A stretch of DNA of 33,153 nt from a virus (Duplodnaviria; Heunggongvirae; Uroviricota; Caudoviricetes), in the IMG/VR virus record IMGVR_UViG_2529292972_000025. One strand, given 5' to 3'. The notes under the pieces are model-generated. The model searched no databases and was not told the DNA's origin. It worked only from the letters and a program-made list of their open reading frames with translations. Of this stretch, positions 1 through 32,571 are shown piece by piece (position 1 is the first letter of the stretch; the number at the start of each line of letters is the position of its first letter). The translations under genes were made by a program, and so were the position numbers.

Positions 1-1362
1 ATGTTTAAACCGGAACTCCTTTCCCCGGCGGGAACGCTGAAAAATATGCGTTACGCTTTCGCTTATGGCGCAGATGCTGTTTATGCGGGCCAGCCGCGTT
101 ACTCCCTGCGTGTGCGCAACAACGAATTCAACCACGAAAACCTTCAGCTCGGCATCAATGAAGCCCACGCGCTGGGGAAAAAGTTTTATGTCGTGGTCAA
201 CATTGCACCGCACAACGCCAAGCTGAAAACCTTTATCCGTGACCTGAAACCGGTGGTGGAAATGGGGCCGGATGCGCTGATTATGTCCGATCCAGGGCTG
301 ATTATGCTGGTGCGTGAGCACTTCCCTGAAATGCCGATCCATCTCTCGGTACAGGCTAACGCCGTGAACTGGGCGACGGTGAAATTCTGGCAGCAAATGG
401 GACTGACCCGCGTGATCCTCTCTCGCGAGCTGTCGCTGGAAGAGATTGAAGAGATCCGCAATCAGGTGCCGGATATGGAGATCGAGATCTTCGTTCACGG
501 CGCACTGTGCATGGCCTACTCCGGTCGCTGCCTGCTCTCTGGCTATATCAACAAGCGCGATCCGAACCAGGGTACCTGCACCAACGCCTGCCGCTGGGAG
601 TACAACGTCCAGGAAGGGAAAGAAGATGACGTTGGCAACATCGTACACAAGTACGAGCCGATTCCGGTGCAAAATGTTGAGCCGACGCTGGGTATCGGCG
701 CGCCAACCGACAAAGTGTTTATGATCGAAGAAGCCCAGCGTCCGGGCGAGTATATGACCGCGTTTGAAGATGAGCACGGCACTTACATCATGAACTCGAA
801 AGATCTGCGCGCCATCGCCCATGTAGAACGCCTGACCAAAATGGGCGTGCATTCGCTGAAAATCGAAGGCCGTACTAAATCTTTCTACTATTGCGCACGC
901 ACCGCACAGGTTTATCGTAAAGCTATCGATGATGCCGCTGCGGGCAAACCGTTCGATACCAGCCTGCTGGAAACTCTGGAAGGTCTGGCGCATCGTGGCT
1001 ATACCGAAGGTTTCCTGCGTCGTCATACTCACGACGATTATCAGAACTACGAATACGGTTATTCAGTTTCTGACCGCCAGCAGTTTGTTGGTGAGTTTAC
1101 CGGTGAGCGCAAGGGGGACCTCGCGGCGGTAGCGGTGAAAAATAAATTCTCCGTTGGCGACAGCCTTGAGCTGATGACGCCGCAAGGCAACATTAACTTT
1201 ACCCTTGAGCACATGGAAAACGCCAAAGGCGAAGCTATGCCGGTAGCACCAGGCGATGGTTATACTGTGTGGCTCCCGGTGCCGCAGGATCTTGAGCTAA
1301 ATTACGCGCTGCTGATGCGTAATTTCTCCGGGGAAACTACGCGTAACCCCCACGGTAAGTGA
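1..1362 (+). CDS. yegQ: U32-family peptidase-like protein YegQ (TrhP, tRNA hydroxylation)
   Basis: 453-aa ORF from ATG at position 1; translated sequence recognised as E. coli YegQ/U32 family; host flank left of attL. Confidence 0.85.
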   Translation: MFKPELLSPAGTLKNMRYAFAYGADAVYAGQPRYSLRVRNNEFNHENLQLGINEAHALGKKFYVVVNIAPHNAKLKTFIRDLKPVVEMGPDALIMSDPGLIMLVREHFPEMPIHLSVQANAVNWATVKFWQQMGLTRVILSRELSLEEIEEIRNQVPDMEIEIFVHGALCMAYSGRCLLSGYINKRDPNQGTCTNACRWEYNVQEGKEDDVGNIVHKYEPIPVQNVEPTLGIGAPTDKVFMIEEAQRPGEYMTAFEDEHGTYIMNSKDLRAIAHVERLTKMGVHSLKIEGRTKSFYYCARTAQVYRKAIDDAAAGKPFDTSLLETLEGLAHRGYTEGFLRRHTHDDYQNYEYGYSVSDRQQFVGEFTGERKGDLAAVAVKNKFSVGDSLELMTPQGNINFTLEHMENAKGEAMPVAPGDGYTVWLPVPQDLELNYALLMRNFSGETTRNPHGK

Positions 1363-8298: not shown

Positions 8299-8892
8299 CT
8301 ATTTGTCCCGGTTGGCTAAGGGATGACACAATTTATTCTTTGTCGCTGATGAGGGGAATTTTTTATAGAGCGTGGACAGGCCAATATCAAAAATCAGCGC
8401 CACACGTTGACGAGATTCCCCCGCAGCCAGCAACCGTCCGACCTGCTCCCACTCACTCGCGGTGAGTTTCGGTCGTCTGCCACCAATACGACCTTTGGCT
8501 CTGGCCGCTTCCAGCCCGGCCCGAGTCCGCTCGACAATGAGTTCTCGTTCCATTTCAGCCAGGGCACCCATCACATGAAAGAAAAAACGCCCCATCGGCG
8601 TGCTGGTATCAATAGCATCTGTCAGGCTGCGAAAATTAACGCCGCGTTCGCGCAGTTCCTCAACCAGAATGACCAGATGCCGCATACTACGCCCCAGCCT
8701 GTCCAGCTTCCAGACTACCAGAGTGTCACCTGCTGATAATGTCCTGAGCAGTTTTTTCAGTCCCGGCCTGTCGGACTTCGTGCCGCTGATTTTGTCCTCA
8801 AAAATCAGCTCACATCCTGCGCACTCCAGCGCATTACGCTGCAATTCCGTGTTCTGGTCATTTGTTGACACGCGTACATAGCCAATAAGCAT
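8299..8892 (-). CDS. Serine-recombinase DNA invertase (Gin/Cin/Pin/Hin family)
   Basis: Product MLIGYVRVSTNDQNTELQRNALECAGCELIFEDKISG... near-colinear with Gin as I recall it; start taken at second ATG (8892), 6 nt after a GGGGG Shine-Dalgarno; sits beside the invertible segment. Confidence 0.9.
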   Translation of the reverse strand: MLIGYVRVSTNDQNTELQRNALECAGCELIFEDKISGTKSDRPGLKKLLRTLSAGDTLVVWKLDRLGRSMRHLVILVEELRERGVNFRSLTDAIDTSTPMGRFFFHVMGALAEMERELIVERTRAGLEAARAKGRIGGRRPKLTASEWEQVGRLLAAGESRQRVALIFDIGLSTLYKKFPSSATKNKLCHPLANRDK

Positions 8893-8947
8893 GAGCATCC
8901 CCCTGAATAAAAACCGGAGATGATGCCAGTTACCCGTTATCTCTGCA

Positions 8948-8973
8948 TTTTCATAAACGTTGGTTTGGGAGAA
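8948..8973. repeat. Invertase crossover site, left (26 bp, hix/gix-like)
   Basis: TTTTCATAAACG-TT-GGTTTGGGAGAA; inverted relative to site at 10809-10834; 12-bp half sites around a 2-bp core like hix TTATCAAAAACC-TT-GGTTTTCAAGAA. Confidence 0.7.
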
Positions 8974-9411
8974 GGCTCTGCATTACCTGTTGGTGTCCCT
9001 GTTCCGTGGCCTTCAGCTACGCCGCCAACAGGCTGGCTGAAATGCAATGGCGCTGCCTTTGATAAGGTTAAATATCCCCGTCTTGCTACAGCATATCCAT
9101 CAGGGAAACTACCTGATCTCCGCGGTGAGTTTATTCGTGGCTGGGATGATGGGCGCGGCATTGATACAGGGCGTGCTTTATTGAGTATTCAGAGTGATGA
9201 AGTCAGAAAGCTCGCATTAAAATACTGGGGACCAGCTTCAAACAGTTCACCATCAAAAACATTTGCACTCAGCGACAGTGCCGGTGGCGGGTTGTACACG
9301 GATGGAATAAGTCAGGCAAGCGGTGGGATTATCAACGCTTTTCAGCTCCCTGGCGGTAACGAAACCCGCCCACGAAATGTTGCATTTAACTATATCGTGA
9401 GGGCTGCATAA
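8962..9411 (+). CDS. Alternative tail-fibre C-terminal segment (Sv-prime), promoterless, in frame with crossover site
   Basis: Reading frame continues from crossover site as GLGEGSALPVGVPVPWPSATPPTGWLKCNGAAFDKVKYPRLATAY...; would fuse in frame to the constant part of H after inversion. Confidence 0.7.
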   Translation, partial: GLGEGSALPVGVPVPWPSATPPTGWLKCNGAAFDKVKYPRLATAYPSGKLPDLRGEFIRGWDDGRGIDTGRALLSIQSDEVRKLALKYWGPASNSSPSKTFALSDSAGGGLYTDGISQASGGIINAFQLPGGNETRPRNVAFNYIVRAA

Positions 9412-10013
9412 TGGATAATGCTGTATTAAATAGCGAGTTTATTGCCACGAAGGCGGGGAATATTACCGTCTATAACTATGATAGTGAAACACGGGAATAT
9501 ATTTCCACATCAACTGAATATCTTGCTGTGGGGGTCGGTATTCCAGCATGTTCCTGTCTTGATGCACCTGGCATACATAAGGTTGGTTATGCAATCTGTC
9601 GTTCTGTGAATTTAAATTCATGGGAATATGTGCCAGACCATCGCGGTGAAATCGTCTATAGCACAGAAACAGGAGAATCAAAAGAAATCACAGCTCCGGG
9701 TGATTACCCTGAAAATACAACCACTATCGCCCCTTTATCTCCATACGATAAATGGGATGGTGAGAAATGGGTGACCGATACTGAGGCACAGCATAGCGCC
9801 GCAGTCGAAGCGGCAGAAGCACAGCGCCAGTCACTGATTGATGCTGCTATGGCTTCCATCAGTCTGATTCAACTGAAATTGCAGGCCGGACGGAAACTGA
9901 CGCAGGCAGAAACAACCCGACTTAACGCCGTGCTGGATTACACTGACGCGGTGACGGCAACAGATACCAGCACCGCGCCGGATGTCATCTGGCCTGAACT
10001 GCCGGAGGCGTAG
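9411..10013 (+). CDS. Tail-fibre assembly chaperone, alternative (U-prime)
   Basis: 200-aa ORF starting at TAATG overlap with Sv-prime stop; inside invertible segment. Confidence 0.7.
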   Translation: MDNAVLNSEFIATKAGNITVYNYDSETREYISTSTEYLAVGVGIPACSCLDAPGIHKVGYAICRSVNLNSWEYVPDHRGEIVYSTETGESKEITAPGDYPENTTTIAPLSPYDKWDGEKWVTDTEAQHSAAVEAAEAQRQSLIDAAMASISLIQLKLQAGRKLTQAETTRLNAVLDYTDAVTATDTSTAPDVIWPELPEA

Positions 10014-10437
10014 GCCATTTAATATCTGGCGCACCGGAAGTATCGACCAGTTCCAGTGCGTCCAGATAATCCAGCCACAGATTATATTGCGCCAGTTCCT
10101 CGCCTTTCAGACGACCAATAGCCGCTTTACCAGGCCATTGTTTACTGTTCATATAATCGTTGGCCTGATTAATTAGTAGCTGTCTTTCTGATTCAGTAAT
10201 TTCAATAAGTTCTTCATGCGTAGGGGCAGGAATATCCGCCCACGCGGGCAGCCCATCACCTCCGGCAATACGGATTTTTCCTTGTGGCGGTTCAGCCATA
10301 AATTCACTGATAATATTTTGACTCACCTCCTTAGCATCTGATAAATCCCATCCCTCTGATTTATATTTATCAATCATATCCACAGGGAAAAAAGCATTAT
10401 GCCTTGCGCTATAAACATATTCGTTCATATAAATCAT
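9985..10437 (-). CDS. G: Tail-fibre assembly chaperone (gpG-like)
   Basis: 150-aa ORF directly downstream of H; true start may be ATG at 10428 (AGGA Shine-Dalgarno); C-terminal ...DIKWPTPPAVQAR resembles the U-prime C-terminus. Confidence 0.7.
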   Translation of the reverse strand: MIYMNEYVYSARHNAFFPVDMIDKYKSEGWDLSDAKEVSQNIISEFMAEPPQGKIRIAGGDGLPAWADIPAPTHEELIEITESERQLLINQANDYMNSKQWPGKAAIGRLKGEELAQYNLWLDYLDALELVDTSGAPDIKWPTPPAVQAR

Positions 10438-20799: not shown

Positions 20800-22572
20800 A
20801 TGACCATCACCACAGACACCACTCTTTTACACGACCCGCGTCGTCAGGCGGCGCTGCTGTACTGGCAGGGGTTTTCCGTGCCGCAGATTGCCGCCATGTT
20901 GCAGATGAAACGCCCGACAGTGCAGAGCTGGAAACAGCGCGACGGCTGGGACAGCGTTGCCCCCATCAGCCGTGTCGAAATGAGTCTGGAAGCGCGGCTG
21001 ACCCAGCTCATCATCAAACCGCAGAAAACCGGCGGTGACTTCAAGGAAATTGACCTGCTGGGACGCCAGATTGAACGACTGGCACGGGTAAACCGTTACA
21101 GCCAGACCGGCAACGAGGCAGACCTTAATCCGAACGTCGCTAACCGCAACAAAGGCGGGCGTCGCAAACCGAAAAAGAATTTTTTCAGTGACGAGGCCAT
21201 CGAAAAGCTGGAGCAGATTTTCTTTGAGCAGTCTTTCGACTATCAGTTGCACTGGTATCGCGCCGGGCTTGAGCACCGCATCCGCGATATCCTGAAATCC
21301 CGCCAGATTGGCGCGACGTTTTATTTTTCCCGCGAGGCGCTGCTGCGTGCCCTGAAAACCGGTCATAACCAGATTTTTCTGTCGGCCAGTAAAACGCAGG
21401 CGTATGTGTTCCGCGAATACATCATCGCCTTTGCCCGGCTGGTTGACGTTGACCTGACCGGTGACCCGATTGTCCTGGGCAATAACGGCGCAAAACTGAT
21501 TTTTCTCGGCACCAACTCCAACACCGCACAAAGCCATAACGGCGACCTGTACGTCGACGAGATTTTCTGGATACCGAATTTTCAGGTACTGCGTAAGGTG
21601 GCATCAGGTATGGCCTCACAGAGTCACCTGCGCTCGACCTATTTCTCCACCCCGTCCACGCTGGCGCACGACGCCTACCCGTTCTGGTCCGGTGAACTGT
21701 TTAACCGGGGACGCGCCAGCGCCGCTGAACGCGTGGAAATCGACGTCAGTCATAACGCCCTTGCCGGTGGGCTTCTCTGTGCGGACGGCCAGTGGCGGCA
21801 GATTGTCACCATTGAGGACGCGCTGAAAGGCGGCTGCACGCTGTTCGACATTGAGCAGCTCAAACGCGAAAACAGCGCCGACGATTTTAAAAACCTGTTC
21901 ATGTGTGAATTTGTTGACGACAAGGCGTCGGTGTTCCCGTTCGAGGAGCTGCAACGCTGCATGGTCGACACACTGGAAGAATGGGAAGACTATGCACCCT
22001 TTGCCGCAAATCCGTTCGGCTCCCGCCCGGTATGGATTGGTTACGACCCGTCACACCGTGGCGACAGCGCCGGATGCGTGGTACTGGCACCGCCGGTGGT
22101 GGCCGGTGGCAAATTCAGAATACTTGAGCGTCACCAGTGGAAAGGCATGGACTTTGCCACTCAGGCGGAATCCATCCGCAAACTCACCGAAAAATACAAC
22201 GTCGAATACATCGGAATTGATGCCACCGGCCTCGGTGTCGGCGTGTTCCAGCTCGTGCGCTCGTTCTATCCCGCCGCGCGCGATATCCGCTACACGCCGG
22301 AAATGAAAACCGCAATGGTGCTCAAGGCCAAAGACGTCATCCGCCGTGGCTGTCTGGAATATGACGTCAGCGCCACCGACATCACCAGCTCGTTCATGGC
22401 TATCCGCAAGACCATGACCAGCAGCGGACGCAGCGCCACCTATGAGGCCAGCCGCAGCGAGGAAGCCAGCCACGCCGACCTCGCCTGGGCAACCATGCAC
22501 GCCCTGTTAAATGAGCCACTCACCGCCGGTATCAGCACTCCGCTGACATCCACCATTCTGGAGTTTTACTGA
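20800..22572 (+). CDS. P: Terminase large subunit (ATPase) gpP
   Basis: Start at ATG 20800 (MTITTDTTLL...) 5 nt after GAGG; ORF track starts at a TTG at 20770; divergent from O as in P2. Confidence 0.9.
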   Translation: MTITTDTTLLHDPRRQAALLYWQGFSVPQIAAMLQMKRPTVQSWKQRDGWDSVAPISRVEMSLEARLTQLIIKPQKTGGDFKEIDLLGRQIERLARVNRYSQTGNEADLNPNVANRNKGGRRKPKKNFFSDEAIEKLEQIFFEQSFDYQLHWYRAGLEHRIRDILKSRQIGATFYFSREALLRALKTGHNQIFLSASKTQAYVFREYIIAFARLVDVDLTGDPIVLGNNGAKLIFLGTNSNTAQSHNGDLYVDEIFWIPNFQVLRKVASGMASQSHLRSTYFSTPSTLAHDAYPFWSGELFNRGRASAAERVEIDVSHNALAGGLLCADGQWRQIVTIEDALKGGCTLFDIEQLKRENSADDFKNLFMCEFVDDKASVFPFEELQRCMVDTLEEWEDYAPFAANPFGSRPVWIGYDPSHRGDSAGCVVLAPPVVAGGKFRILERHQWKGMDFATQAESIRKLTEKYNVEYIGIDATGLGVGVFQLVRSFYPAARDIRYTPEMKTAMVLKAKDVIRRGCLEYDVSATDITSSFMAIRKTMTSSGRSATYEASRSEEASHADLAWATMHALLNEPLTAGISTPLTSTILEFY

Positions 22573-23606
22573 TGAGCAAGAAAAAAGGGAAAACACCGCG
22601 ACCTGCGGCAAAAACAATCACCGCCAGCGCCCCGAAAATGGAAGCATTCACCTTTGGTGAGCCGGTGCCGGTACTCGACCGCCGTGACATTCTGGATTAC
22701 GTCGAGTGCATCAGTAACGGCAGATGGTATGAGCCACCGGTCAGCTTTACCGGTCTGGCAAAAAGCCTGCGTGCTGCCGTGCATCACAGCTCACCGATTT
22801 ACGTCAAACGTAATATTCTGGCCTCGACATTTATCCCGCATCCGTGGCTTTCCCAGCAGGATTTCAGCCGCTTTGTGCTGGATTTTCTGGTCTTCGGTAA
22901 TGCGTTTCTGGAAAAGCGATACAGCACCACCGGTAAGGTCATCAGACTGGAAACCTCACCGGCAAAATATACCCGCCGTGGTGTGGAGGAGGATGTTTAC
23001 TGGTGGGTGCCGTCCTTCAACGAGCCGACAGCCTTCGCGACCGGCTCCGTGTTTCACCTGCTGGAGCCGGATATTAATCAGGAGCTGTACGGCCTGCCGG
23101 AATATCTCAGCGCCCTTAACTCTGCCTGGCTGAATGAGTCGGCCACGCTGTTCCGCCGCAAGTATTACGAAAACGGCGCACATGCCGGATACATCATGTA
23201 CGTCACCGACGCATTGCAGGATCGCGATTACATTGACTCAATCCGCGAAAACATGGCTAATTCGAAAGGCCGCAATAACTTTAAAAATCTGTTTCTCTAT
23301 GCACCGCAGGGAAAGCCAGACGGCATCAAAATTATCCCGCTCAGTGAAGTGGCAACGAAGGACGATTTTTTTAATATCAAAAAAGCCAGCGCCGCTGACC
23401 TGCTGGACGCGCACCGCATCCCCTTTCAGTTGATGGGCGGCAAGCCGGAGAACGTCGGGTCGCTGGGTGATATTGAGAAAGTGGCAAAGGTCTTTGTCCG
23501 CAATGAGCTTATCCCGTTACAGGACAGGATTCGGGAAATAAACGGCTGGCTCGGCCAGGAGGTCATCCGCTTTAAAAACTACTCACTGGACACTGACAAC
23601 GGCTGA
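22572..23606 (+). CDS. Q: Portal protein gpQ
   Basis: 344-aa ORF, ATG overlaps P stop; P2 order. Confidence 0.9.
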   Translation: MSKKKGKTPRPAAKTITASAPKMEAFTFGEPVPVLDRRDILDYVECISNGRWYEPPVSFTGLAKSLRAAVHHSSPIYVKRNILASTFIPHPWLSQQDFSRFVLDFLVFGNAFLEKRYSTTGKVIRLETSPAKYTRRGVEEDVYWWVPSFNEPTAFATGSVFHLLEPDINQELYGLPEYLSALNSAWLNESATLFRRKYYENGAHAGYIMYVTDALQDRDYIDSIRENMANSKGRNNFKNLFLYAPQGKPDGIKIIPLSEVATKDDFFNIKKASAADLLDAHRIPFQLMGGKPENVGSLGDIEKVAKVFVRNELIPLQDRIREINGWLGQEVIRFKNYSLDTDNG

Positions 23607-23610
23607 ACAT

Positions 23611-23634
23611 CGCCGCCTGCGGGCGGCTTTTTTA
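23611..23634 (+). terminator. Intrinsic terminator after Q
   Basis: Stem GCCGCC / GGCGGC with TGCG loop followed by TTTTTT. Confidence 0.65.
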
Positions 23635-23775
23635 CACCCCGTCATCACGCCCTCACACGCTCACCACCGCACAAAACACCCCGCAGACACACCAACGCCC
23701 CGGCGCACACTCTAAACGCCATCACGACGCGCTCAGACGCTGAAAAAATAAAATCAGCACCACCGCCAGCGCGCA

Positions 23776-23794
23776 GTGCTTTCCCCGCCTCGCC
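23776..23794. other. cos cohesive-end site (19 nt)
   Basis: GTGCTTTCCCCGCCTCGCC is the reverse complement of GGCGAGGCGGGGAAAGCAC, the P2 cohesive end as I recall it; located just beyond Q as expected. Confidence 0.7.
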
Positions 23795-23953
23795 CGCCCG
23801 CTTCATGGGGCGGTTTTAATGCAGATGCACGAACACGCCGAAGGCGCGCCAGTACCGGCGGCGCTCACACGTGACTGGGAAGGAAAACGCATGCGATTCG
23901 ATGCAGTAATGCATGCAGAGCTAAAAATGGCAGAACATACTGAAAAAACGCAT

Positions 23954-23981
23954 AAAAAAACCGGCATTCAGGTTGCCGGTT
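23954..23981 (-). terminator. Intrinsic terminator for the minus-strand small-gene transcript
   Basis: Stem AACCGGCA (23959-23966) / TGCCGGTT (23974-23981), 7-nt loop; A-run 23954-23960 on plus gives a U-run on the minus strand. Confidence 0.6.
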
Positions 23982-24000
23982 TGAGTCGACTTCATTGTGG

Positions 24001-24102
24001 TTACTGGCCGCGCAATGCGCCAATAATACTGGTAAGGCAACAAGTGGCAACAATCAGCAAAAAAACCGTCGTCCACGGATTTTCATAAATGAGAGATAAC
24101 AT
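24001..24102 (-). CDS. Hypothetical 33-aa hydrophobic peptide (MLSLIYENPWTTVFLLIVATCCLTSIIGALRGQ)
   Basis: Not in ORF track (under 60 aa); ATG at 24102, AAGGA about 11 nt upstream, one predicted transmembrane stretch, ends just before the terminator. Confidence 0.35.
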   Translation of the reverse strand: MLSLIYENPWTTVFLLIVATCCLTSIIGALRGQ

Positions 24103-24118
24103 ATTGATAAAGATCCTT

Positions 24119-24250
24119 TTATTTGTTCATTCTGATGTGGTTTAAAAGGTGTTTGATAACGACCGTAAGCTCATCTTTACTGGCTTGCTCGACCATTTTT
24201 TCGGTGTAGCTTTCCACTTCGCGGGAACTCAGGTCGTTATTTGAGGCCAT
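24119..24250 (-). CDS. Hypothetical small protein (43 aa from ATG 24250; 64 aa if from ATG 24313)
   Basis: Open frame in cargo island; start ambiguous; MASNNDLSSREVESYTEKMVEQASKDELTVVIKHLLNHIRMNK. Confidence 0.35.
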   Translation of the reverse strand: MASNNDLSSREVESYTEKMVEQASKDELTVVIKHLLNHIRMNK

Positions 24251-24311
24251 TACAGTGAGTCTCTTTGCCCAGTCGGCATAAGGGTCTTTAATTGATGAAA
24301 GGGAATTATGC

Positions 24312-24749
24312 ATGTCCAAAAACCTCGAATTATTTAACCAGCAGACGGCTGAAATCTTTGCGGTGCTATGGGATAACTTTCCTGTACCACAAGTCATCAC
24401 CTACAAAAAATTTAACGCCGCGTTACCTGATGACTACTTTGACCAACTTAACTCACCAGAAATGAAAGCACTGAATCAGTTGCGTAGTGTGGTTGATGGC
24501 ACATTCACTTTCCTAAGCGAAAACGGCTATATTCTGTACGGAACAGACCATCAGACCGGTTTTCATGATGTGCGCCTGACCGAGAAAGCACTCGCGGTGC
24601 TCAACAAAAAACCCGAAGCACTTGGCGGTAATGAAACGATGGGAGATAAAATTATCAGTGCAGTAAAAGACGGGACTCCAGGTGTCATTGCTGGAGCAGT
24701 GACAAACCTGTTGACTCTTGGTGTTAATTTTGTGACGTCAGCTTCATAG
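24312..24749 (+). CDS. Hypothetical 145-aa cargo protein, no family recognised
   Basis: ATG at 24312 with AAGGGA Shine-Dalgarno 7 nt upstream; convergent with the RT gene. Confidence 0.6.
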   Translation: MSKNLELFNQQTAEIFAVLWDNFPVPQVITYKKFNAALPDDYFDQLNSPEMKALNQLRSVVDGTFTFLSENGYILYGTDHQTGFHDVRLTEKALAVLNKKPEALGGNETMGDKIISAVKDGTPGVIAGAVTNLLTLGVNFVTSAS

Positions 24750-24775
24750 CTAACTACTTTCTGAGGTTTCTAATC

Positions 24776-24818
24776 AACGCCGCCTGCACCGAAAGTAAAT
24801 TCCTGCACTGGCGGCGTT
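24776..24818. terminator. Hairpin between convergent genes (terminator-like)
   Basis: 9-bp stem AACGCCGCC (24776-24784) / GGCGGCGTT (24810-24818); no immediately adjacent U-run on either strand. Confidence 0.3.
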
Positions 24819-24873
24819 ACTAACGCCAAAGTTATTTTAATTATTGATGCTATTATGCAATACATTCAATATG

Positions 24874-25824
24874 TTAATTTGCAGTATTAGCCTTTAAAGT
24901 AAGCACCTTAGATTTGTAACGTTGCTCAATCACTCCCATTGAATGCAAACGACCAAAGAGCTTTTTGGCAATGATTGTTTCTCTCGCATTTTCGGCGTCT
25001 TTAATTATTTTCCAATAATCTATTTCCCTAGCCATCAAAAAATGCTGCTCATTCCTAACTTTTAATGCATTGCCTAATACAATAACTCCAGTTACCAACT
25101 TAGGCTTATCTCTGGCATATAGTTTTGTTTTCGTTGGGTGTATAACATGCCCATGCTTATTAACGATCTTACGAATTACAGCGCAGAACAATCGATTTAC
25201 GTTACTACCTGAAAAAGTGAGATCATCAACATAAACAGTCATGTTAACTCGTAACTTTTGGCAAAGTTGATATATTTCACCAAACATTCTTGAATTTGCA
25301 AAATATGCCAACGGCATACTGATGCGACTACCTGTTGGCAATCGGTCATGACAAGTACATATGTGAGACAAAACATCAGCAACATCAGATGACATTTTCA
25401 TCACCGAAAAGAAAAAAGAAAATATCATCCCTCTTGTAGTTGATGGAAAAAAAGCTTTAATATCTGTTGTCATCATCTTTTCATTATTAAGATGAGCTTT
25501 AGCATTCGTCACATTAGAGCACTTCTTCTTCCCTGAGTGCAGATATTCTGGCAAAGCAATCCGCGATAACAAACTTGCAATTCGTGTATGTACAAGTTCT
25601 AGTTTTTCTAAAGGCTTTTGTATTTTTCGTGCTTTCCCTTTTTTAGAAAGCTGCTCAAAAACGGAATAGTTTCCTTCATCTTTTCTCAAAGAGTATAAAT
25701 CATCAAGACTAACACAAAGCAAATTCGCCAGTTTTCTTTTACTTTTGAGTTTATAAAATGGCGAATCCATTATGTCATAAGATTTATTTTTAGTATTAAC
25801 TTTAAGCTTTTTCCGTTTTTTCAT
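24874..25824 (-). CDS. Reverse transcriptase, retron-type (defence-associated)
   Basis: 316-aa product with NAKAH (NAxxH), TTDIKAFFPS (motif A), LPTGSRISMPLAYFANS (motif B region), YVDD (catalytic motif C) and LVTGVIV (VTG) in the canonical order. Confidence 0.85.
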   Translation of the reverse strand: MKKRKKLKVNTKNKSYDIMDSPFYKLKSKRKLANLLCVSLDDLYSLRKDEGNYSVFEQLSKKGKARKIQKPLEKLELVHTRIASLLSRIALPEYLHSGKKKCSNVTNAKAHLNNEKMMTTDIKAFFPSTTRGMIFSFFFSVMKMSSDVADVLSHICTCHDRLPTGSRISMPLAYFANSRMFGEIYQLCQKLRVNMTVYVDDLTFSGSNVNRLFCAVIRKIVNKHGHVIHPTKTKLYARDKPKLVTGVIVLGNALKVRNEQHFLMAREIDYWKIIKDAENARETIIAKKLFGRLHSMGVIEQRYKSKVLTLKANTAN

Positions 25825-26110
25825 TTTTATTACTTACCCACTCCAGAACATCCAGAACTTTACCGGCTAAATTTAAACGCAATCGCTTAGACAAACGGCC
25901 TTGCGTGCCTAATGATTCCGAAAAGAATACTAAAGAGGATACTGGTATGTCGAAATGGGAGGCGTAACGCTCTAAGACTTCAATCGACGGTGACCAAACT
26001 CCGCTTTCAAGCGATACTATTTTGTCTTTTGGAATACCTAAAGATGAAGATAACTCAACTATTGATTCTTTATGGTATTGCCTTATTAAACGAAGGGCTT
26101 TATGTAACAT
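25802..26110 (-). CDS. XRE-family helix-turn-helix protein, RT-associated
   Basis: Start at ATG 26110 (GGAG 6 nt upstream) gives MLHKALRLIRQYHKESIVELSSSLGIPKDKIVSLESGVWSPSIEVLERYASHF...; stop overlaps RT start by 23 nt. Confidence 0.7.
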   Translation of the reverse strand: MLHKALRLIRQYHKESIVELSSSLGIPKDKIVSLESGVWSPSIEVLERYASHFDIPVSSLVFFSESLGTQGRLSKRLRLNLAGKVLDVLEWVSNKNEKTEKA

Positions 26111-26146
26111 AGGCAACTCCATGCTATTGAAACTAGGGAGGACGCA

Positions 26147-26302
26147 TTACTCATCACCCCCTTCGAAGTAGTCCAGTGCTCGAGTAACTAAATCAAACAG
26201 TCTAATACCCCATTTGATTAATTTCCAAGCGTAACCAGCCCACTTTTTCAGGTTTGACTTGTTCTGCGCCTGCTGTTCGTTGGTTAATTTATCATTCTTC
26301 AT
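26147..26302 (-). CDS. Hypothetical 51-aa protein, first gene of RT operon
   Basis: ATG at 26302 with AAGGAG Shine-Dalgarno 7 nt upstream; MKNDKLTNEQQAQNKSNLKKWAGYAWKLIKWGIRLFDLVTRALDYFEGGDE; ORF track's 130-aa version has no plausible upstream start. Confidence 0.55.
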   Translation of the reverse strand: MKNDKLTNEQQAQNKSNLKKWAGYAWKLIKWGIRLFDLVTRALDYFEGGDE

Positions 26303-26667
26303 GATTTGCTCCTTATGCCCATAGTGTGCAAACGGTATGTCTGCTCCAACACTATGGTTCGCCCTCATAAGGATGAGATTGAACAGCACTAGCCCCCTGC
26401 TCCACGAACCCTTGGTCGCCCAAAGGGTTCGAATACCCATACGCCATACCTCCTGATCCTGTGACTCCTGTCGCTGGCAGGGGCGTTGCGCGGGGTAAGT
26501 GTTAGAAAGCGTTAACTTTCCACGGGTAAAAATACCCAATTGATGGCGATATATCTCACTAACTAACCAATGTTTGCATCATAACAAGTAAACCGTTGTA
26601 TTTGCTCCCCCTGTATATGATATTTTTTCATATAAAACAAATATATAATAAGTTAAAGGCATATCAA
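26303..26667 (-). promoter_or_regulatory. Promoter plus ~330-nt structured leader of the RT operon (candidate ncRNA)
   Basis: Candidate sigma70 promoter on minus strand: -35 TTGATA (26667-26662), -10 TATATT (26645-26640); leader carries nested hairpin 26311-26372 and 9-bp-stem hairpin 26405-26431. Confidence 0.3.
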
Positions 26668-26710
26668 TGCAACATGGATATGCTTTCATTGCATTGAATT
26701 TTAAAGTGTT

Positions 26711-28999
26711 TTACATGAAAAATGACTCTTCATCTCGAAATCCGAACCACTCATTAATAACCATATACGTGAATTTTTTCCCGTCATAATTTACGGTTGC
26801 CCCACGCGCCAGCGCCTCAATCTCCCATCGCTGAGGCCTGATACCGTTCTGAGCAAGGTCAACGCGGATACGGGTAATTTGCATTCGTTCCGACCGGGTC
26901 AGTCTGGCCGATGGCGCTATTTCATGCGGTTTTAACGGGCTTCCGCTTCTTTGCTGACGGTTTGGTGTTCTCAGGTCGTGTTTTAATGCGCCCCTGAGCG
27001 CCCTCACGACCTCCGGGTCATTCCATTCGATAACACCGTCATCAACCAGATTAAGCACTGCGGCGGCGTGCTCAGAAGGTGTGGGAGCCGGTAACGAAGT
27101 ATCACCACCGGTGAGCTTTCCACAGTTATTGACAGGACTCCGAGGCGCGGCGATGCCGCTTTTTAAAGTCAAAGGCTCCACGACCGGAACTTTCGGCACA
27201 ATGCGCCAGTCCGTCGTTCTGGTGATATGAATATGACGCGCGCCGAGATGCGGCGCGTAAATGCCGACCACTCTCTCGACTTCTTCCTCGTACTCGTTAA
27301 CGTCATCCGACGGGCTACGGGCGACTCTGACAGTCTGGCAATCGCGCGGAACATTTGCCCCACCCTGCGCGCTGATATACAACGCAAAATCGCCACTGTC
27401 TGCGGCAGCACGTGCAGCCTCGACGCGTTCGTCAAACTCATCAGCAATGCTGACGCCGCGAGGCAATTTGCGTAGTTCACGGTAAGCCCCCATTGTCGGC
27501 AGGCCAACCGTTTTAAATTGCGGGATACGCCACGTTGACGCCCATGCGGTAACAGCCGCTGCAGTGTCTTTCAGCGGCCTGCCGGTATCGTTATCGAGCT
27601 GACCATCCAGTGCATAGCCGTCGATGTTTTTTGAAATGTATTTCGCGATATATCCCGCTGCACCGCCCCGGTTAAGGTGTTTTGCCTGAAAACGGTTTCG
27701 CGCAGCTCCTCTTTCATCGCCATCCTCTTTGAGCGCATAGCGACGCATGATTTCGATAATCTGGTTACGCTGGCGTGGATTACAAAAAAGCATCATATGC
27801 CAGTGCGGTGTTCCATCGTGGTGTGGCTCGACGACTCGCAAACCGTAGACCTGTAAATCATTATCCTTGAATGCCGTGCGCATCAGGCTCCAGATACGGC
27901 AGAGATAACGCTGCGCATCCTTTGGATTAAATGCCTCATCGTTCCAGCCGTGATTTAGCTGGACGGTTTTACTTTCGCCTTTTCCGACCTGACGTGTCGG
28001 GTGATACTTTGACGGCGTGGTCAGCGTGATAAACATCCCCACATCACCCTCTGCGGCGGCGTAACGCTCAATACCGGCAATGGTGTTCATCAGCTCCATC
28101 CGGCGAATTTCAGGATTAGAAATACTGCCCATCACCTTACTGATAAGGTCGATGCGTTCGCCGGTTTCCCTGTTTTCGAGGTCACACGATTTAAGAAATT
28201 CCAGATTTGCCTGGCGGCGCGCACGCACATCACGAATGGCGTGTTTACTGGCATAAGGAGAACGGTCTTTATTGACCTCCCCGACAGCAATCAGTAACGC
28301 CTCATGCCAGCGCATACGCTGGCCTTTAAGCTGATGAGTCCACCACTCATCGTTAAACAGGCGGGCAATGGCAGAATATGCCTGCCTCGTGGTCATCTGC
28401 CCTTTACGGTATTTTTTCCAGTAAAGCGGGGAAATATTGAAAGCACGTGCAGCGCCAGCAACATGACCATACAGGTGAGCCTGCGCCTCATCCGTAAACA
28501 GCGATTCTTTTTCGCCATGCGCATCCACCCAGGCATCGCAGATTTCCTCATACATCATGAAAAGCTGCGATGAGATACGGGCGGCAAACTTTTTCAGCTC
28601 CTTGTCATTCATTCCAGGCAGGCGCGCATAGTGGTCACGCTCTGCCAGAAACAGCAACGACGCGTCGGTGTTCATTTCATGGCGCTGATTCACGCGCTCA
28701 ATGCGCGGCCATAAACGACGCTGAAAAGTGGATGTGAGGAAATAAAACCCGTGCACCGGGCTTTTATTGCGCCGGATATAGTCATAGCGTGAAGTAAACA
28801 GCGAGCGCAAAAAGTAAGGCAGGCGGTTAATCGTGGATAAAACACCTTGCACCTGACGCATCTCGTCACGTGTAAGGGGTCTTTCGCGCCCGACAGCCTC
28901 ACGTGGCGCGTTCCATGCATAAGCACCGGTAAACGTCTTACCGGTGCCTGCGGCAAATGCTGACGAAGGGACAAAATGCCCGGAGGCTTTAACGGCCAT
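26711..28999 (-). CDS. A: Replication initiation protein gpA (rolling-circle endonuclease)
   Basis: Start taken at ATG 28999 (MAVKASGHFVPSSAFAAGTGK...); ORF track begins at a TTG at 29041. Confidence 0.85.
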   Translation of the reverse strand: MAVKASGHFVPSSAFAAGTGKTFTGAYAWNAPREAVGRERPLTRDEMRQVQGVLSTINRLPYFLRSLFTSRYDYIRRNKSPVHGFYFLTSTFQRRLWPRIERVNQRHEMNTDASLLFLAERDHYARLPGMNDKELKKFAARISSQLFMMYEEICDAWVDAHGEKESLFTDEAQAHLYGHVAGAARAFNISPLYWKKYRKGQMTTRQAYSAIARLFNDEWWTHQLKGQRMRWHEALLIAVGEVNKDRSPYASKHAIRDVRARRQANLEFLKSCDLENRETGERIDLISKVMGSISNPEIRRMELMNTIAGIERYAAAEGDVGMFITLTTPSKYHPTRQVGKGESKTVQLNHGWNDEAFNPKDAQRYLCRIWSLMRTAFKDNDLQVYGLRVVEPHHDGTPHWHMMLFCNPRQRNQIIEIMRRYALKEDGDERGAARNRFQAKHLNRGGAAGYIAKYISKNIDGYALDGQLDNDTGRPLKDTAAAVTAWASTWRIPQFKTVGLPTMGAYRELRKLPRGVSIADEFDERVEAARAAADSGDFALYISAQGGANVPRDCQTVRVARSPSDDVNEYEEEVERVVGIYAPHLGARHIHITRTTDWRIVPKVPVVEPLTLKSGIAAPRSPVNNCGKLTGGDTSLPAPTPSEHAAAVLNLVDDGVIEWNDPEVVRALRGALKHDLRTPNRQQRSGSPLKPHEIAPSARLTRSERMQITRIRVDLAQNGIRPQRWEIEALARGATVNYDGKKFTYMVINEWFGFRDEESFFM

Positions 29000-29264
29000 G
29001 TGTGCCAAAAGCCTCTGAACAACGCTTGCTGAGTTGCTCAACCTGCGCGTTTAAATCGGCAAAAGATTTTGCGCTTCCGGTCAGAATATCGTGATGCATC
29101 AGGCCGGAAACGAGCTGGCTTAATTTCGGGTAATAACCAACCACCGCCAGCCATTCCTGACCGGCGTTTTTACCGCTTTCCGCTCTCTTTTTCTCGTGGA
29201 GAATAAACTGAAAGCTGTCACTGGTAACGACATAACGTTCGCCAATTTCAATACGAATACTCAT
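28989..29264 (-). CDS. P2 orf83-like protein
   Basis: 91-aa ORF, GGAG Shine-Dalgarno, overlaps A start; position as in P2. Confidence 0.6.
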   Translation of the reverse strand: MSIRIEIGERYVVTSDSFQFILHEKKRAESGKNAGQEWLAVVGYYPKLSQLVSGLMHHDILTGSAKSFADLNAQVEQLSKRCSEAFGTHGR

Positions 29265-31557: not shown

Positions 31558-32571
31558 ATGGCAATCAAAAAACTCGATGATGGTCGATATGAAGTGGACA
31601 TCCGCCCTACTGGACGTAATGGAAAACGCATCCGTAGGAAGTTTGATAAGAAAAGCGAAGCTGTCGCTTTCGAGAAATACACGTTGTACAACCACCACAA
31701 TAAAGAATGGCTATCAAAACCAACAGACAAGCGACGTCTGTCGGAGCTGACACAGATCTGGTGGGATTTAAAGGGTAAACACGAAGAGCATGGGAAATCT
31801 AATCTTGGAAAAATTGAAATCTTCACAAAAATAACGAATGACCCATGCGCATTTCAAATTACGAAATCCCTTATCAGCCAGTACTGCGCCACCCGAAGAA
31901 GTCAGGGTATTAAACCTTCGAGTATCAATCGTGATTTAACATGTATTAGCGGCATGTTTACAGCCCTGATTGAAGCGGAGTTATTCTTTGGTGAGCACCC
32001 TATCAGAGGGACAAAGAGGCTTAAGGAGGAAAAACCAGAAACAGGCTATCTCACACAGGAAGAAATTGCCTTACTGCTTGCAGCACTTGACGGCGACAAT
32101 AAAAAGATTGCGATTCTTTGCCTGAGTACAGGAGCACGTTGGGGAGAAGCAGCTCGTTTGAAAGCAGAAAATATCATCCATAACCGCGTCACGTTTGTTA
32201 AAACGAAAACAAACAAACCACGCACCGTCCCGATCTCAGAGGCTGTTGCCAAAATGATCGCGGATAACAAACGAGGTTTTTTATTCCCTGATGCTGATTA
32301 CCCTCGCTTCAGACGAACAATGAAAGCAATAAAACCGGATTTGCCAACGGGGCAAGCCACACATGCACTAAGGCACAGCTTTGCCACTCATTTCATGATT
32401 AATGGAGGAAGTATTATCACGCTACAACGGATACTAGGTCACACGCGGATTGAGCAAACTATGGTTTACGCTCATTTTGCGCCAGAGTACCTTCAGGACG
32501 CCATTTCTCTTAATCCGCTAAGAGGTGGTACTGAGGCCGAGAGTGTCCACACAGTGTCCACAGTAGAGTAA
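31558..32571 (+). CDS. int: Tyrosine integrase
   Basis: 337-aa product, GGAGG Shine-Dalgarno, C-terminal HALRHSFATHF...GHTRIEQTMVYAHF catalytic region; ends 80 bp before attR. Confidence 0.9.
   Translation: MAIKKLDDGRYEVDIRPTGRNGKRIRRKFDKKSEAVAFEKYTLYNHHNKEWLSKPTDKRRLSELTQIWWDLKGKHEEHGKSNLGKIEIFTKITNDPCAFQITKSLISQYCATRRSQGIKPSSINRDLTCISGMFTALIEAELFFGEHPIRGTKRLKEEKPETGYLTQEEIALLLAALDGDNKKIAILCLSTGARWGEAARLKAENIIHNRVTFVKTKTNKPRTVPISEAVAKMIADNKRGFLFPDADYPRFRRTMKAIKPDLPTGQATHALRHSFATHFMINGGSIITLQRILGHTRIEQTMVYAHFAPEYLQDAISLNPLRGGTEAESVHTVSTVE

Follow-up and report, generated by a model that had tools for sequence, protein, structure and literature searches.

Type VI retrons, reportedly classified by Mestre et al. 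in 2020, are an already known system: experimental work on their mechanism dates from 2025-2026, standard tools detect them, and a member from Escherichia coli has been tested. Here, we compare with the described members a locus that is, to judge from its sequence, an intact and complete type VI retron. It lies in a 33,153-nucleotide (nt) stretch of DNA (IMG/VR virus record IMGVR_UViG_2529292972_000025) from E. coli O157:H7, which represents a P2-like prophage. We call this whole stretch the window, and all coordinates are positions in it. The locus consists of a structured RNA followed by genes for a small protein (SP), a helix-turn-helix (HTH) protein, and a reverse transcriptase (RT), with all retron genes on the minus strand. 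The order msr-msd RNA-SP-HTH-RT is that of the canonical type VI retron operon (bioRxiv 10.1101/2025.10.22.683967; bioRxiv 10.64898/2026.04.27.721009).

The two published accounts of how such retrons work disagree. In Retron-Vpa2 of Vibrio parahaemolyticus (Zhang et al.), the SP is a toxic effector, toxic on its own, that is encoded together with the RT template on a hybrid RNA of ~470 nt and is translationally repressed (bioRxiv 10.1101/2025.10.22.683967). The ribosome-binding site (RBS) and AUG of the SP are sequestered in stem-loops, and the RNA has inverted repeats resembling a1/a2. The HTH protein represses reverse transcription; lambda Beta and Exo, with help from Gam, make multicopy single-stranded DNA (msDNA) accumulate, and translation of the SP requires this msDNA. 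A 63-nt msDNA maps to the long msr-msd stem-loop, and an extra 23 nt at the msDNA 5' end form a stem-loop with a 7-nt repeat that is essential for SP derepression. The authors reported two conserved 7-nt direct repeats, one in the msd loop and one in the riboregulator loop, and proposed that the riboregulator opens when the msDNA docks there. Vpa2 and Eco12, each under its native promoter, protect against lambda-vir; Eco12 is a type VI retron of E. coli that is phylogenetically related to Vpa2 and has no detectable baseline msDNA (bioRxiv 10.1101/2025.10.22.683967).

In Sen3 of Salmonella enterica (cl2075; Garcia-Rodriguez et al.), single-stranded DNA (ssDNA, ~112 and 145 nt) and the SP are both constitutive, and the HTH protein is a protein antitoxin (bioRxiv 10.64898/2026.04.27.721009). 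The trigger is the loss of RecBCD activity, or Gam plus Beta plus Exo. Abortive infection as the means of anti-phage defense has been demonstrated for Vpa2, Eco12, and Sen3. Sen3 resembles the window locus in gene order, with an SP that is a toxin, an HTH protein that is needed for viability, and an RT whose activity is needed for defense; its RNA is alike in that the SP coding sequence lies within structured RNA and is flanked by an inverted repeat. Its SP differs, having 79 amino acids (starting MKYETL), an N-terminal extension of ~25 residues, and an extended amphipathic C-terminal helix, both of which the window SP lacks, and Sen3 belongs to a different RT/SP subclade. The absence of these extensions places the window locus in the Vpa2-like branch and not with Sen3/cl2075. 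The type IV and V retrons (Retron-Eco6/Ec48 and Retron-Sen1/St85) are sister groups with related RTs, also of RT clade 3, and they too sense phage interference with RecBCD or recombination. They differ in that abundant msDNA serves as the antitoxin, in their effectors (a two-transmembrane protein; a cold-shock/nuclease pair), and in that Gam alone is a full trigger.

The three genes and their relatives

The window locus combines the general features of a retron (an RT with the characteristic motifs and an adjoining structured noncoding RNA that has inverted repeats and a long, putative msd stem) with those of type VI: the RT belongs to the type VI group (clade 3), a Cro/C1 HTH protein (cl2_1) overlaps it, and the SP lies between the noncoding RNA and the HTH gene. 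The genes are as follows.

24874-25824, minus strand: RT, 316 amino acids, catalytic YVDD intact, 23-nt overlap with the HTH gene
25802-26110, minus strand: HTH protein (Cro/C1-XRE type), 102 amino acids from the conserved ATG, GGAG at 26120-26117
26147-26302, minus strand: SP, 51 amino acids, AAGGAG 7 nt upstream of the ATG

NAxxH, the YxDD catalytic site, and VTG are retron-specific RT motifs. The RT carries NAKAH (107), DIKAFFPS (121), LPTG (162), SMPLAYFANS (169), YVDD (198), and VTG (244), all present and in the order in which an earlier note on this DNA had listed them. Compared with the PADLOC models, it matched RT_VI over nearly the whole profile (positions 1-278 of 279; E = 4.1e-105, 349 bits). 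The second-best model was RT_III-A (E = 5e-45); all 25 matches listed were to retron RT models, and no Abi-type model was among them. The NCBIfam matches were to other retron RT families and were all below threshold (retron_St85_RT, E = 2e-30, 106 bits versus a cutoff of 235), and the Pfam match to RVT_1 was above its cutoff, marginal, and too general for classifying the locus. We found 360 RT homologues at E <= 1e-20, mostly in Enterobacterales, Vibrio, Shewanella, and other Gammaproteobacteria. YVDD was present in all 120 of these that were listed, and the NAxxH, YxDD, and VTG positions were invariant in an alignment of 24 sequences. The Vpa2 preprint writes the mutation of the catalytic motif as YADD>YAAA, yet the V. 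parahaemolyticus RT that matches Vpa2 has YVDD; the spelling is probably a generic notation. No convincing intrinsic terminator was found 3' of the RT gene, where a stem (GGCGTTA-GTA-ACGCC, 24813-24827) lacks a minus-strand T-run.

The HTH protein matched PADLOC HTH_VI (E = 7.7e-31); its Pfam matches (HTH_3/19/31) were weak and too general for classification. The end of its open reading frame (ORF) at 25802 lies 23 nt inside the RT gene, which starts at 25824. Both the alignment and RefSeq support the second ATG, at 26110, as the conserved start, and the upstream ATG at 26122 is missing in most relatives. A gene for an HTH protein occupies the same position in most of 80 related loci; the survey of ORF positions and the iterative profile search described below superseded a regular-expression locator of HTH starts, which was patchy. 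The protein is 48% identical to the Vpa2 HTH protein, with R7 in the same register, and the R7D mutant of Vpa2 is toxic (bioRxiv 10.1101/2025.10.22.683967). By this likeness, the HTH protein probably partners the RT and acts as a negative regulator or an antitoxin.

According to its hydropathy and hydrophobic-moment profiles, the SP is polar in its N-terminal third, forms a strongly amphipathic helix over residues ~20-46, and ends in an acidic tail (GGDE), with no classical transmembrane segment by hydropathy. The amphipathic helix suggests a membrane or a protein-protein target. The SP matches PHROG 15287, and no PADLOC model matched it. In nearly every related locus examined, an ORF of 47-65 amino acids with its own RBS lies directly upstream of the HTH gene, and the ORFs in this slot follow one pattern, in which a polar or basic N terminus is succeeded by a helix of hydrophobic or amphipathic character and then by an acidic tail. 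Plain tblastn located the SP only in close relatives, and we therefore used an iterative profile search, starting from the SP, of 9363 stop-to-stop segments from the collected loci. This search converged on 45 matches, all in the SP slot, and the Vpa2 SP was one of them (E = 4.6e-13). The window SP and the Vpa2 SP are ~33% identical over the C-terminal 24 amino acids, and K15, V39, L43, and Y45 of the former have the same residue numbers as K15, I39, F43, and F45 of the latter, which were mutated in Vpa2. From the analogy with Vpa2, we infer that the SP is a toxic effector. A TTG-started ORF of 130 amino acids (26147-26539, minus strand) was considered as an alternative gene and rejected, given that its upstream part overlies conserved structured RNA and that the conserved start is the ATG at 26302; some phage annotations also call a longer version of the SP (PHROG 5826, 97 amino acids).

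As the Vpa2 reference, we used a V. parahaemolyticus locus (L083 in our collection), taken to be Vpa2 because its 55-amino-acid SP with K15, I39, F43, and F45 and its HTH protein with R7 match the residues given in the paper. The window has the same operon order, including the HTH/RT overlap, with an RT 54% and an HTH protein 48% identical and with the SPs in one profile family. The two loci differ in that the Vpa2 locus lies beside hipA and rpoD, whereas the window copy is in the hotspot of a P2-like prophage, and in that the SPs (55 versus 51 amino acids) have strongly divergent N termini. The window retron, or an 80-90%-identical E. coli variant of it, may be the published Retron-Eco12, for which it is the obvious candidate given the related loci in complete E. 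coli genomes (see below); no Eco12 sequence or accession was found in the preprint or by a full-text search with RefSeq accessions.

These results bear out most of what the earlier note had said of the genes. It had described a 51-amino-acid protein with an AAGGAG RBS, an XRE-type HTH protein, and an RT overlapping the HTH gene by 23 nt, and it had offered a retron of the HTH-accessory class as one reading, to which the full-length RT_VI and HTH_VI matches correspond. The HTH protein is present as described, with its start moved from 26122 to 26110. The suggestion that the 51-amino-acid protein could be an effector or toxin gains weight from its probable kinship, in one profile family, with the toxic Vpa2 SP. 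The note went too far in suggesting that the combination might be uncharacterized or a new variant: the operon is the canonical type VI operon, already studied in Vpa2, Eco12, and Sen3.

The structured RNA

The earlier note had placed the system at 24874-26302. This interval holds the three genes and omits an integral upstream RNA (~26303-26590); with the msr-msd/hybrid RNA missed, the retron call was incomplete. The elements of the RNA, together with a candidate promoter, are as follows.

~26303-26590, minus strand: noncoding 5' part of the type VI hybrid RNA (msr-msd and riboregulator before the SP), from fold and covariation
26538-26523 and 26521-26504, minus strand: two short conserved hairpins on the 5' side, 98.5% and 93.3% paired (37 loci)
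26434-26497, minus strand: long stem with an apex variable in length and sequence, the putative msd core and msDNA template
26405-26431, minus strand: hairpin CGAACCCUUUGG-GCGA-CCAAGGGUUCG (helix 7), 96.9% paired with 2 compensatory pairs (9 relatives)
26393-26404, minus strand: 5' arm (a2-like) of a long-range inverted repeat, pairing over 11 bp with 26128-26140 just after the SP stop
26381-26388, minus strand: UGCUGUUC, pairing with GAACAGCA in SP codons 9-11 (26271-26278)
26366-26373, minus strand: anti-RBS strand UCCUUAUG, pairing with the SP RBS CAUAAGGA (26310-26317)
26359-26364, minus strand: direct repeat 2 (GGGCGA), whose loop separates the anti-RBS strand from the hairpin after it
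26319-26357, minus strand: sequence-variable hairpin immediately upstream of the SP RBS (26357-26350 with 26326-26319; 26344-26339 with 26333-26328)
26128-26146, minus strand: noncoding stretch UGCGUCCUCCCUAGUUUCA after the SP stop, 19 nt, nearly invariant, of which 26128-26140 is the 3' arm of the inverted repeat
26640-26667, minus strand: promoter-like site TTGATA-16-TATATT upstream of the RNA, 10/12 matches, weak

Among nine Enterobacterales relatives, sequence conservation starts at ~26590, and long stretches of 26303-26590, including one of ~90 nt that is almost invariant, are more conserved than the SP coding sequence. The minus-strand RNA of 26110-26600 folds with -170.8 kcal/mol (z = -4.83), and none of 100 shuffles was as stable. 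RNAalifold applied to the nine loci gave 132 pairs, 34 of them with a compensatory change. In this alignment, 95.6% of cells were paired, versus 39-45% when the partners were slid by 1-3 columns, and the covariation score was 0.252, versus 0.05-0.07 for the slid structures (0/500 shuffles reached the observed values). Projected onto an alignment of 37 loci, Vpa2 among them, in which RT identity falls as low as ~41%, the structure had 72.9% of cells paired, versus 41-48% slid, with a covariation score of 0.367 versus 0.11-0.17. Because phylogeny does not enter into the shuffle control and the structure comes from the same sequences, the compensatory counts for single helices weigh more than these totals. 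An E-value-mode Rfam scan of 23500-27200 gave no match, a result that is uninformative because Rfam has no family for type VI retron RNA.

At the 5' side, the two short hairpins (26504-26538) show compensatory changes, with GC and AU exchanged at several pairs. The arms of the long stem that follows are conserved and covary in the nine close relatives (helices 4-6), and the length of its apex varies between relatives. By homology with the Vpa2 msDNAs of 63 and 86 nt, 26434-26497 would be the msd core, the hairpin at 26405-26431 would template the 5' end of the full-length msDNA, and the RT template would thus run from 26497 to 26405. The loop of that hairpin holds direct repeat 1, GGGCGA (26421-26416). 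In a search for the branching G just 3' of the a1-like arm, no conserved G was found other than in the HTH RBS.

The SP coding sequence doubles as part of the structured RNA. The long-range inverted repeat that spans it (26404-26393 with 26140-26128) was 100% paired in the nine loci and 82.4% paired in the 37, where 9 of its 11 pairs were compensatory. The helix between 26388-26381 and 26278-26271 is the best supported of all: it was 98.0% paired in the 37 loci, with compensatory changes at 8/8 pairs (for example, UA in 19 and CG in 17, or GC in 20 and AU in 16). SP codons 12-13 (26270-26265) pair with 26146-26141 (94.5% paired and 5/6 compensatory in the same set). The SPs have a conserved "QQ" or "WQ" near the N terminus that coincides with the most strongly covarying helix (26271-26278, codons 9-11), so conservation of this motif may stem from RNA pairing and not from protein function. 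We also considered a pairing of the 5' GUGAGAUA with the HTH start codon, which was 69% paired in the 37-locus set and which we do not claim.

The anti-RBS strand and the SP RBS form a perfect 8-bp inverted repeat that is invariant in the nine relatives; in the noisier 37-locus alignment, it was 72% paired and 7/7 pairs were compensatory. A small hairpin over the SP AUG (helix 13) is weakly supported. In the variable-sequence hairpin just upstream of the RBS (helices 11-12), 8 of 15 pairs were compensatory and 99-100% were paired in the nine relatives, and its inner helix was 97.9% paired in the 37 loci. Direct repeat 2 is the proposed docking site for the msDNA, by analogy with Vpa2. The two loop repeats change in concert between loci: Vpa2 has GGACGAA twice where the window has GGGCGA, and other loci have TGGTGAT, GTGCGAA, GGGTGAA, or AGCGAAG. 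Across the 37 loci, the longest word shared by the two loops of a locus had a mean length of 6.27, versus 4.79 after permutation (0/2000 permutations as high, in a test that ignores phylogeny).

Vpa2 and the window RNA share a long variable stem with a hairpin after it, an SP RBS that is sequestered, an inverted repeat spanning the SP gene, a helix with SP codons 9-11, and a direct repeat in each of two loops. It matches the three-armed hybrid RNA of Vpa2, with an msr-msd arm, a riboregulator arm holding the RBS and AUG, and a coding arm closed by a1/a2-like repeats. We infer a single transcript of ~450-470 nt (roughly 26590-26128) that holds both the RT template and the SP coding sequence, a length that agrees with the ~470 nt reported for Vpa2. 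A second promoter candidate, found by eye, is TTGTTT-17-TATACA (26640-26612). In the intergenic DNA between gene A and the retron (26620-26720), the promoter-like site is also overlapped by two palindromes of 14 nt (26656-26669/26673-26686 and 26626-26639/26707-26720); the HTH protein might use them as an operator, or they might terminate gene A, in a region that is unconserved in relatives.

Proposed regulation and its alternatives

We propose that the locus is a complete type VI retron carried as abortive-infection cargo and working as Vpa2 does, with msDNA derepressing translation of the toxin, and we give this reading a probability of about 0.6. In an uninfected cell, the SP RBS (26317-26310) would be locked in its helix with 26373-26366, and a complex of RT, HTH protein, and RNA would stand poised, with the HTH protein restraining reverse transcription so that little msDNA and little toxin are made. 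A phage bringing recombination or anti-RecBCD functions (lambda Red-type Beta and Exo, and Gam) would cause msDNA to accumulate. The 5' stem-loop of this msDNA, carrying the complement of GGGCGA, would then dock on the second GGGCGA (26364-26359) beside the anti-RBS strand and free the RBS; the SP would be translated, growth of the infected cell would stop, and the lysogen population would be protected. The four parts of the locus, their conservation, and the RNA pairings come from the analyses above, and the steps from repression to SP production, the extent of the msd, and the toxicity of the SP are presumed from Vpa2.

Several points weigh against this proposal. Defense, msDNA, SP toxicity, and the trigger would all be transferred from a homologue with 54% RT identity, and the key mechanism papers on both Vpa2 and Sen3 are preprints. 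The branching G and the exact ends of the msDNA have not been located, the shuffle and repeat-concordance controls are uncorrected for shared ancestry, and the promoter assignment is weak, with 7 promoter-like sites in the region versus 7.4 expected from shuffles. Finally, despite sharing this gene order and the sequestration of the SP RBS, Sen3 makes its SP and ssDNA constitutively and is controlled posttranslationally (bioRxiv 10.64898/2026.04.27.721009); gene order and RNA structure alone therefore cannot set the regulatory mode.

It is the Sen3 mode that competes best, although we consider it unlikely for this locus. Here, ssDNA and SP would be constitutive, the HTH protein would neutralize the SP, and loss of RecBCD (through Gam, Beta, and Exo) would free the toxin with the level of ssDNA unchanged. 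The shared SP-HTH-RT order, the RNA scaffold in which the SP is embedded, the inverted repeat across the SP, and the enterobacterial (Salmonella) source of Sen3 speak for such a mode, as does the toxicity that follows loss of the HTH protein in Vpa2 and Sen3 alike, which fits a direct antitoxin role; the Sen3 authors themselves stress that shared architecture conceals mechanistic divergence (bioRxiv 10.64898/2026.04.27.721009). However, the extensions that the 51-amino-acid window SP lacks are the ones predicted to be the HTH interface, the SP, HTH protein, RT, and RNA motifs of the window all group with Vpa2, and Eco12 is like Vpa2 and unlike Sen3 in having no detectable baseline msDNA. As msDNA is undetectable at baseline in close relatives, a simple gel may give a false negative.

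We hold it still less probable that the P2-borne enterobacterial type VI branch with a 51-amino-acid SP is regulated in neither a purely Vpa2-like nor a purely Sen3-like way, for example by feedback between translation and reverse transcription. In such a variant, ribosomes in SP codons 9-13 would melt the two strongly covarying helices by which the coding sequence is bound to the msr-msd (26388-26381 with 26278-26271, and 26270-26265 with 26146-26141).

Transcriptional control, as a hybrid or third mode, appears very doubtful; under it, the HTH protein would chiefly be an autorepressor of the operon that binds the palindromes between gpA and the retron, and defense would be switched on through transcription. 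The HTH protein does have a Cro/C1-XRE DNA-binding fold, and the two palindromes do overlap the promoter-like site. Nevertheless, the intergenic DNA upstream of ~26590 is unconserved in relatives that conserve the HTH protein, the HTH protein copurifies with the RT in Vpa2 and Sen3 (and with RNA in Vpa2), and the native promoter is reported to be constitutive.

The least probable reading is that the locus is no working defense retron and is instead a decaying remnant or an RT of another class (a group II intron maturase, Abi-P2 type, or DRT/UG). In its favor, a non-retron RT is known from the same variable locus of P2-like phages (Odegrip et al. 2006, as relayed in PMC9122126), the NCBIfam retron models stayed below their curated cutoffs, and Rfam found no retron RNA, a null for which its lack of a type VI family accounts. 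This reading is already contradicted by the full-length RT_VI match and the uniformly retron RT models listed with it, by the HTH_VI partner, by the RNA covariation, and by the SP profile family, and the three ORFs and YVDD are intact in a locus that is identical across many genomes.

The carrier prophage and its cargo slot

The retron lies between the replication gene A and the portal gene Q, adjoining cos, with the following landmarks.

26711-29041, minus strand: gene A (replication), Pfam Phage_GPA, E = 1e-123
23776-23794, minus strand: P2 cos site, matched at 19/19 nt (0 expected by chance), which together with gene A bounds the cargo hotspot
22572-23606, plus strand: portal gene (Q), from Pfam

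This is the gpA-gpQ position, and in P2-like phages anti-phage cargo, retrons included, has an established hotspot at the gpA-cos-gpQ locus (Rousset et al. 2022, PMC9122126). The earlier note had read a three-gene minus-strand operon between gene A and cos, in the slot where P2 has tin and old, and the ORFs, the Pfam match of gene A, the exact cos, and the hotspot agree with it. The operon, with a GC content of 0.32-0.40, stands out from the phage backbone, where it is 0.52-0.59. In this slot, P2 old and tin and the RT of P2-EC30 (Abi-P2) have the same gene A-cos position and a prophage-borne exclusion role (PMC9122126), and P2-like phages carry the non-retron RT mentioned above. Type VI retrons resemble old, as a preprint on OLD describes it, in responding to lambda recombination or anti-RecBCD functions. 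The proteins and mechanisms of old, tin, and Abi-P2 are unrelated to those of the window retron, and the window has no old or tin homologue.

A 1951-bp query (24760-26710, the operon and its upstream region) was 100% identical in FRIK944 and at least 11 other O157:H7 chromosomes. RefSeq annotates all three genes in these identical genomes, the 51-amino-acid gene as "hypothetical protein." Among 5426 complete E. coli genomes, 100 had a related locus, the identity being >=95% in 28 of them and 80-90% in 71. In Yersinia, Serratia, and Klebsiella, P2-like elements carry the same retron module in the interval from gene A to the portal gene, with different genes after the RT; this variation sets the limits of the module at the end of gene A and the RT stop codon. 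A 62%-identical copy of the retron in Dickeya (locus L089, 3727-5951) lies beside TatD, QueC, and QatB genes in a chromosomal defense island (Qat type) with no P2-like phage.

Two further ORFs of low-GC cargo lie between the RT gene and cos, at 24119-24313 (minus strand, 64 amino acids, PHROG 2454) and 24312-24749 (plus strand, 145 amino acids, PHROG 2266), both of unknown function. They are divergent, with start codons that overlap by 2 nt, which leaves no room for a promoter between them. The pair also adjoins the retron in Klebsiella phage ST147-VIM1phi7.1 and is missing from the Serratia and Yersinia P2-like loci. We considered these ORFs as parts of the retron and rejected this, since the sequence after the RT gene differs between related P2-like loci; the pair appears to be separate cargo. 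Directly beside cos is an ORF of 89 amino acids (23819-24088, plus strand, PHROG 6595, unknown function) with terminator-like hairpins around it (23612-23627, 23794-23813, and 23982-23958).

Elsewhere in the window, a serine invertase gene (Resolvase plus HTH_7; 8299-8898, minus strand) stands beside tail-fiber collar and tail-fiber assembly genes in opposed orientations (8920-9411 and 9411-10013, plus strand; 9985-10437, minus strand). The segment 8299-10437 has the look of an invertible segment for host range, a feature absent from phage P2 itself. A gene for a U32-family peptidase at the left edge (1-1362, plus strand) is probably host DNA, and an integrase gene lies at 31558-32571 (plus strand); the window appears to cover nearly the whole prophage and one junction.

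A standard defense-system profile scan is enough to name this locus as a type VI retron, and its small ORF, as a member of the family of the Vpa2 toxin, would not be an unknown. The locus is a natural copy, in E. coli and a P2-like prophage, of a retron type with two disagreeing published mechanisms and would make a convenient test system in the native host. The comparative RNA data, with helices that reach into the SP coding sequence and loop repeats that covary, give precise mutations for a riboregulator that msDNA would open, and if the proposed docking is true, the concerted evolution of the loop repeats would be the first comparative evidence of a DNA-RNA kissing switch. For the P2-like phages, the finding suggests that the tin/old slot swaps functionally similar modules that respond to the recombination and anti-RecBCD functions of other phages.

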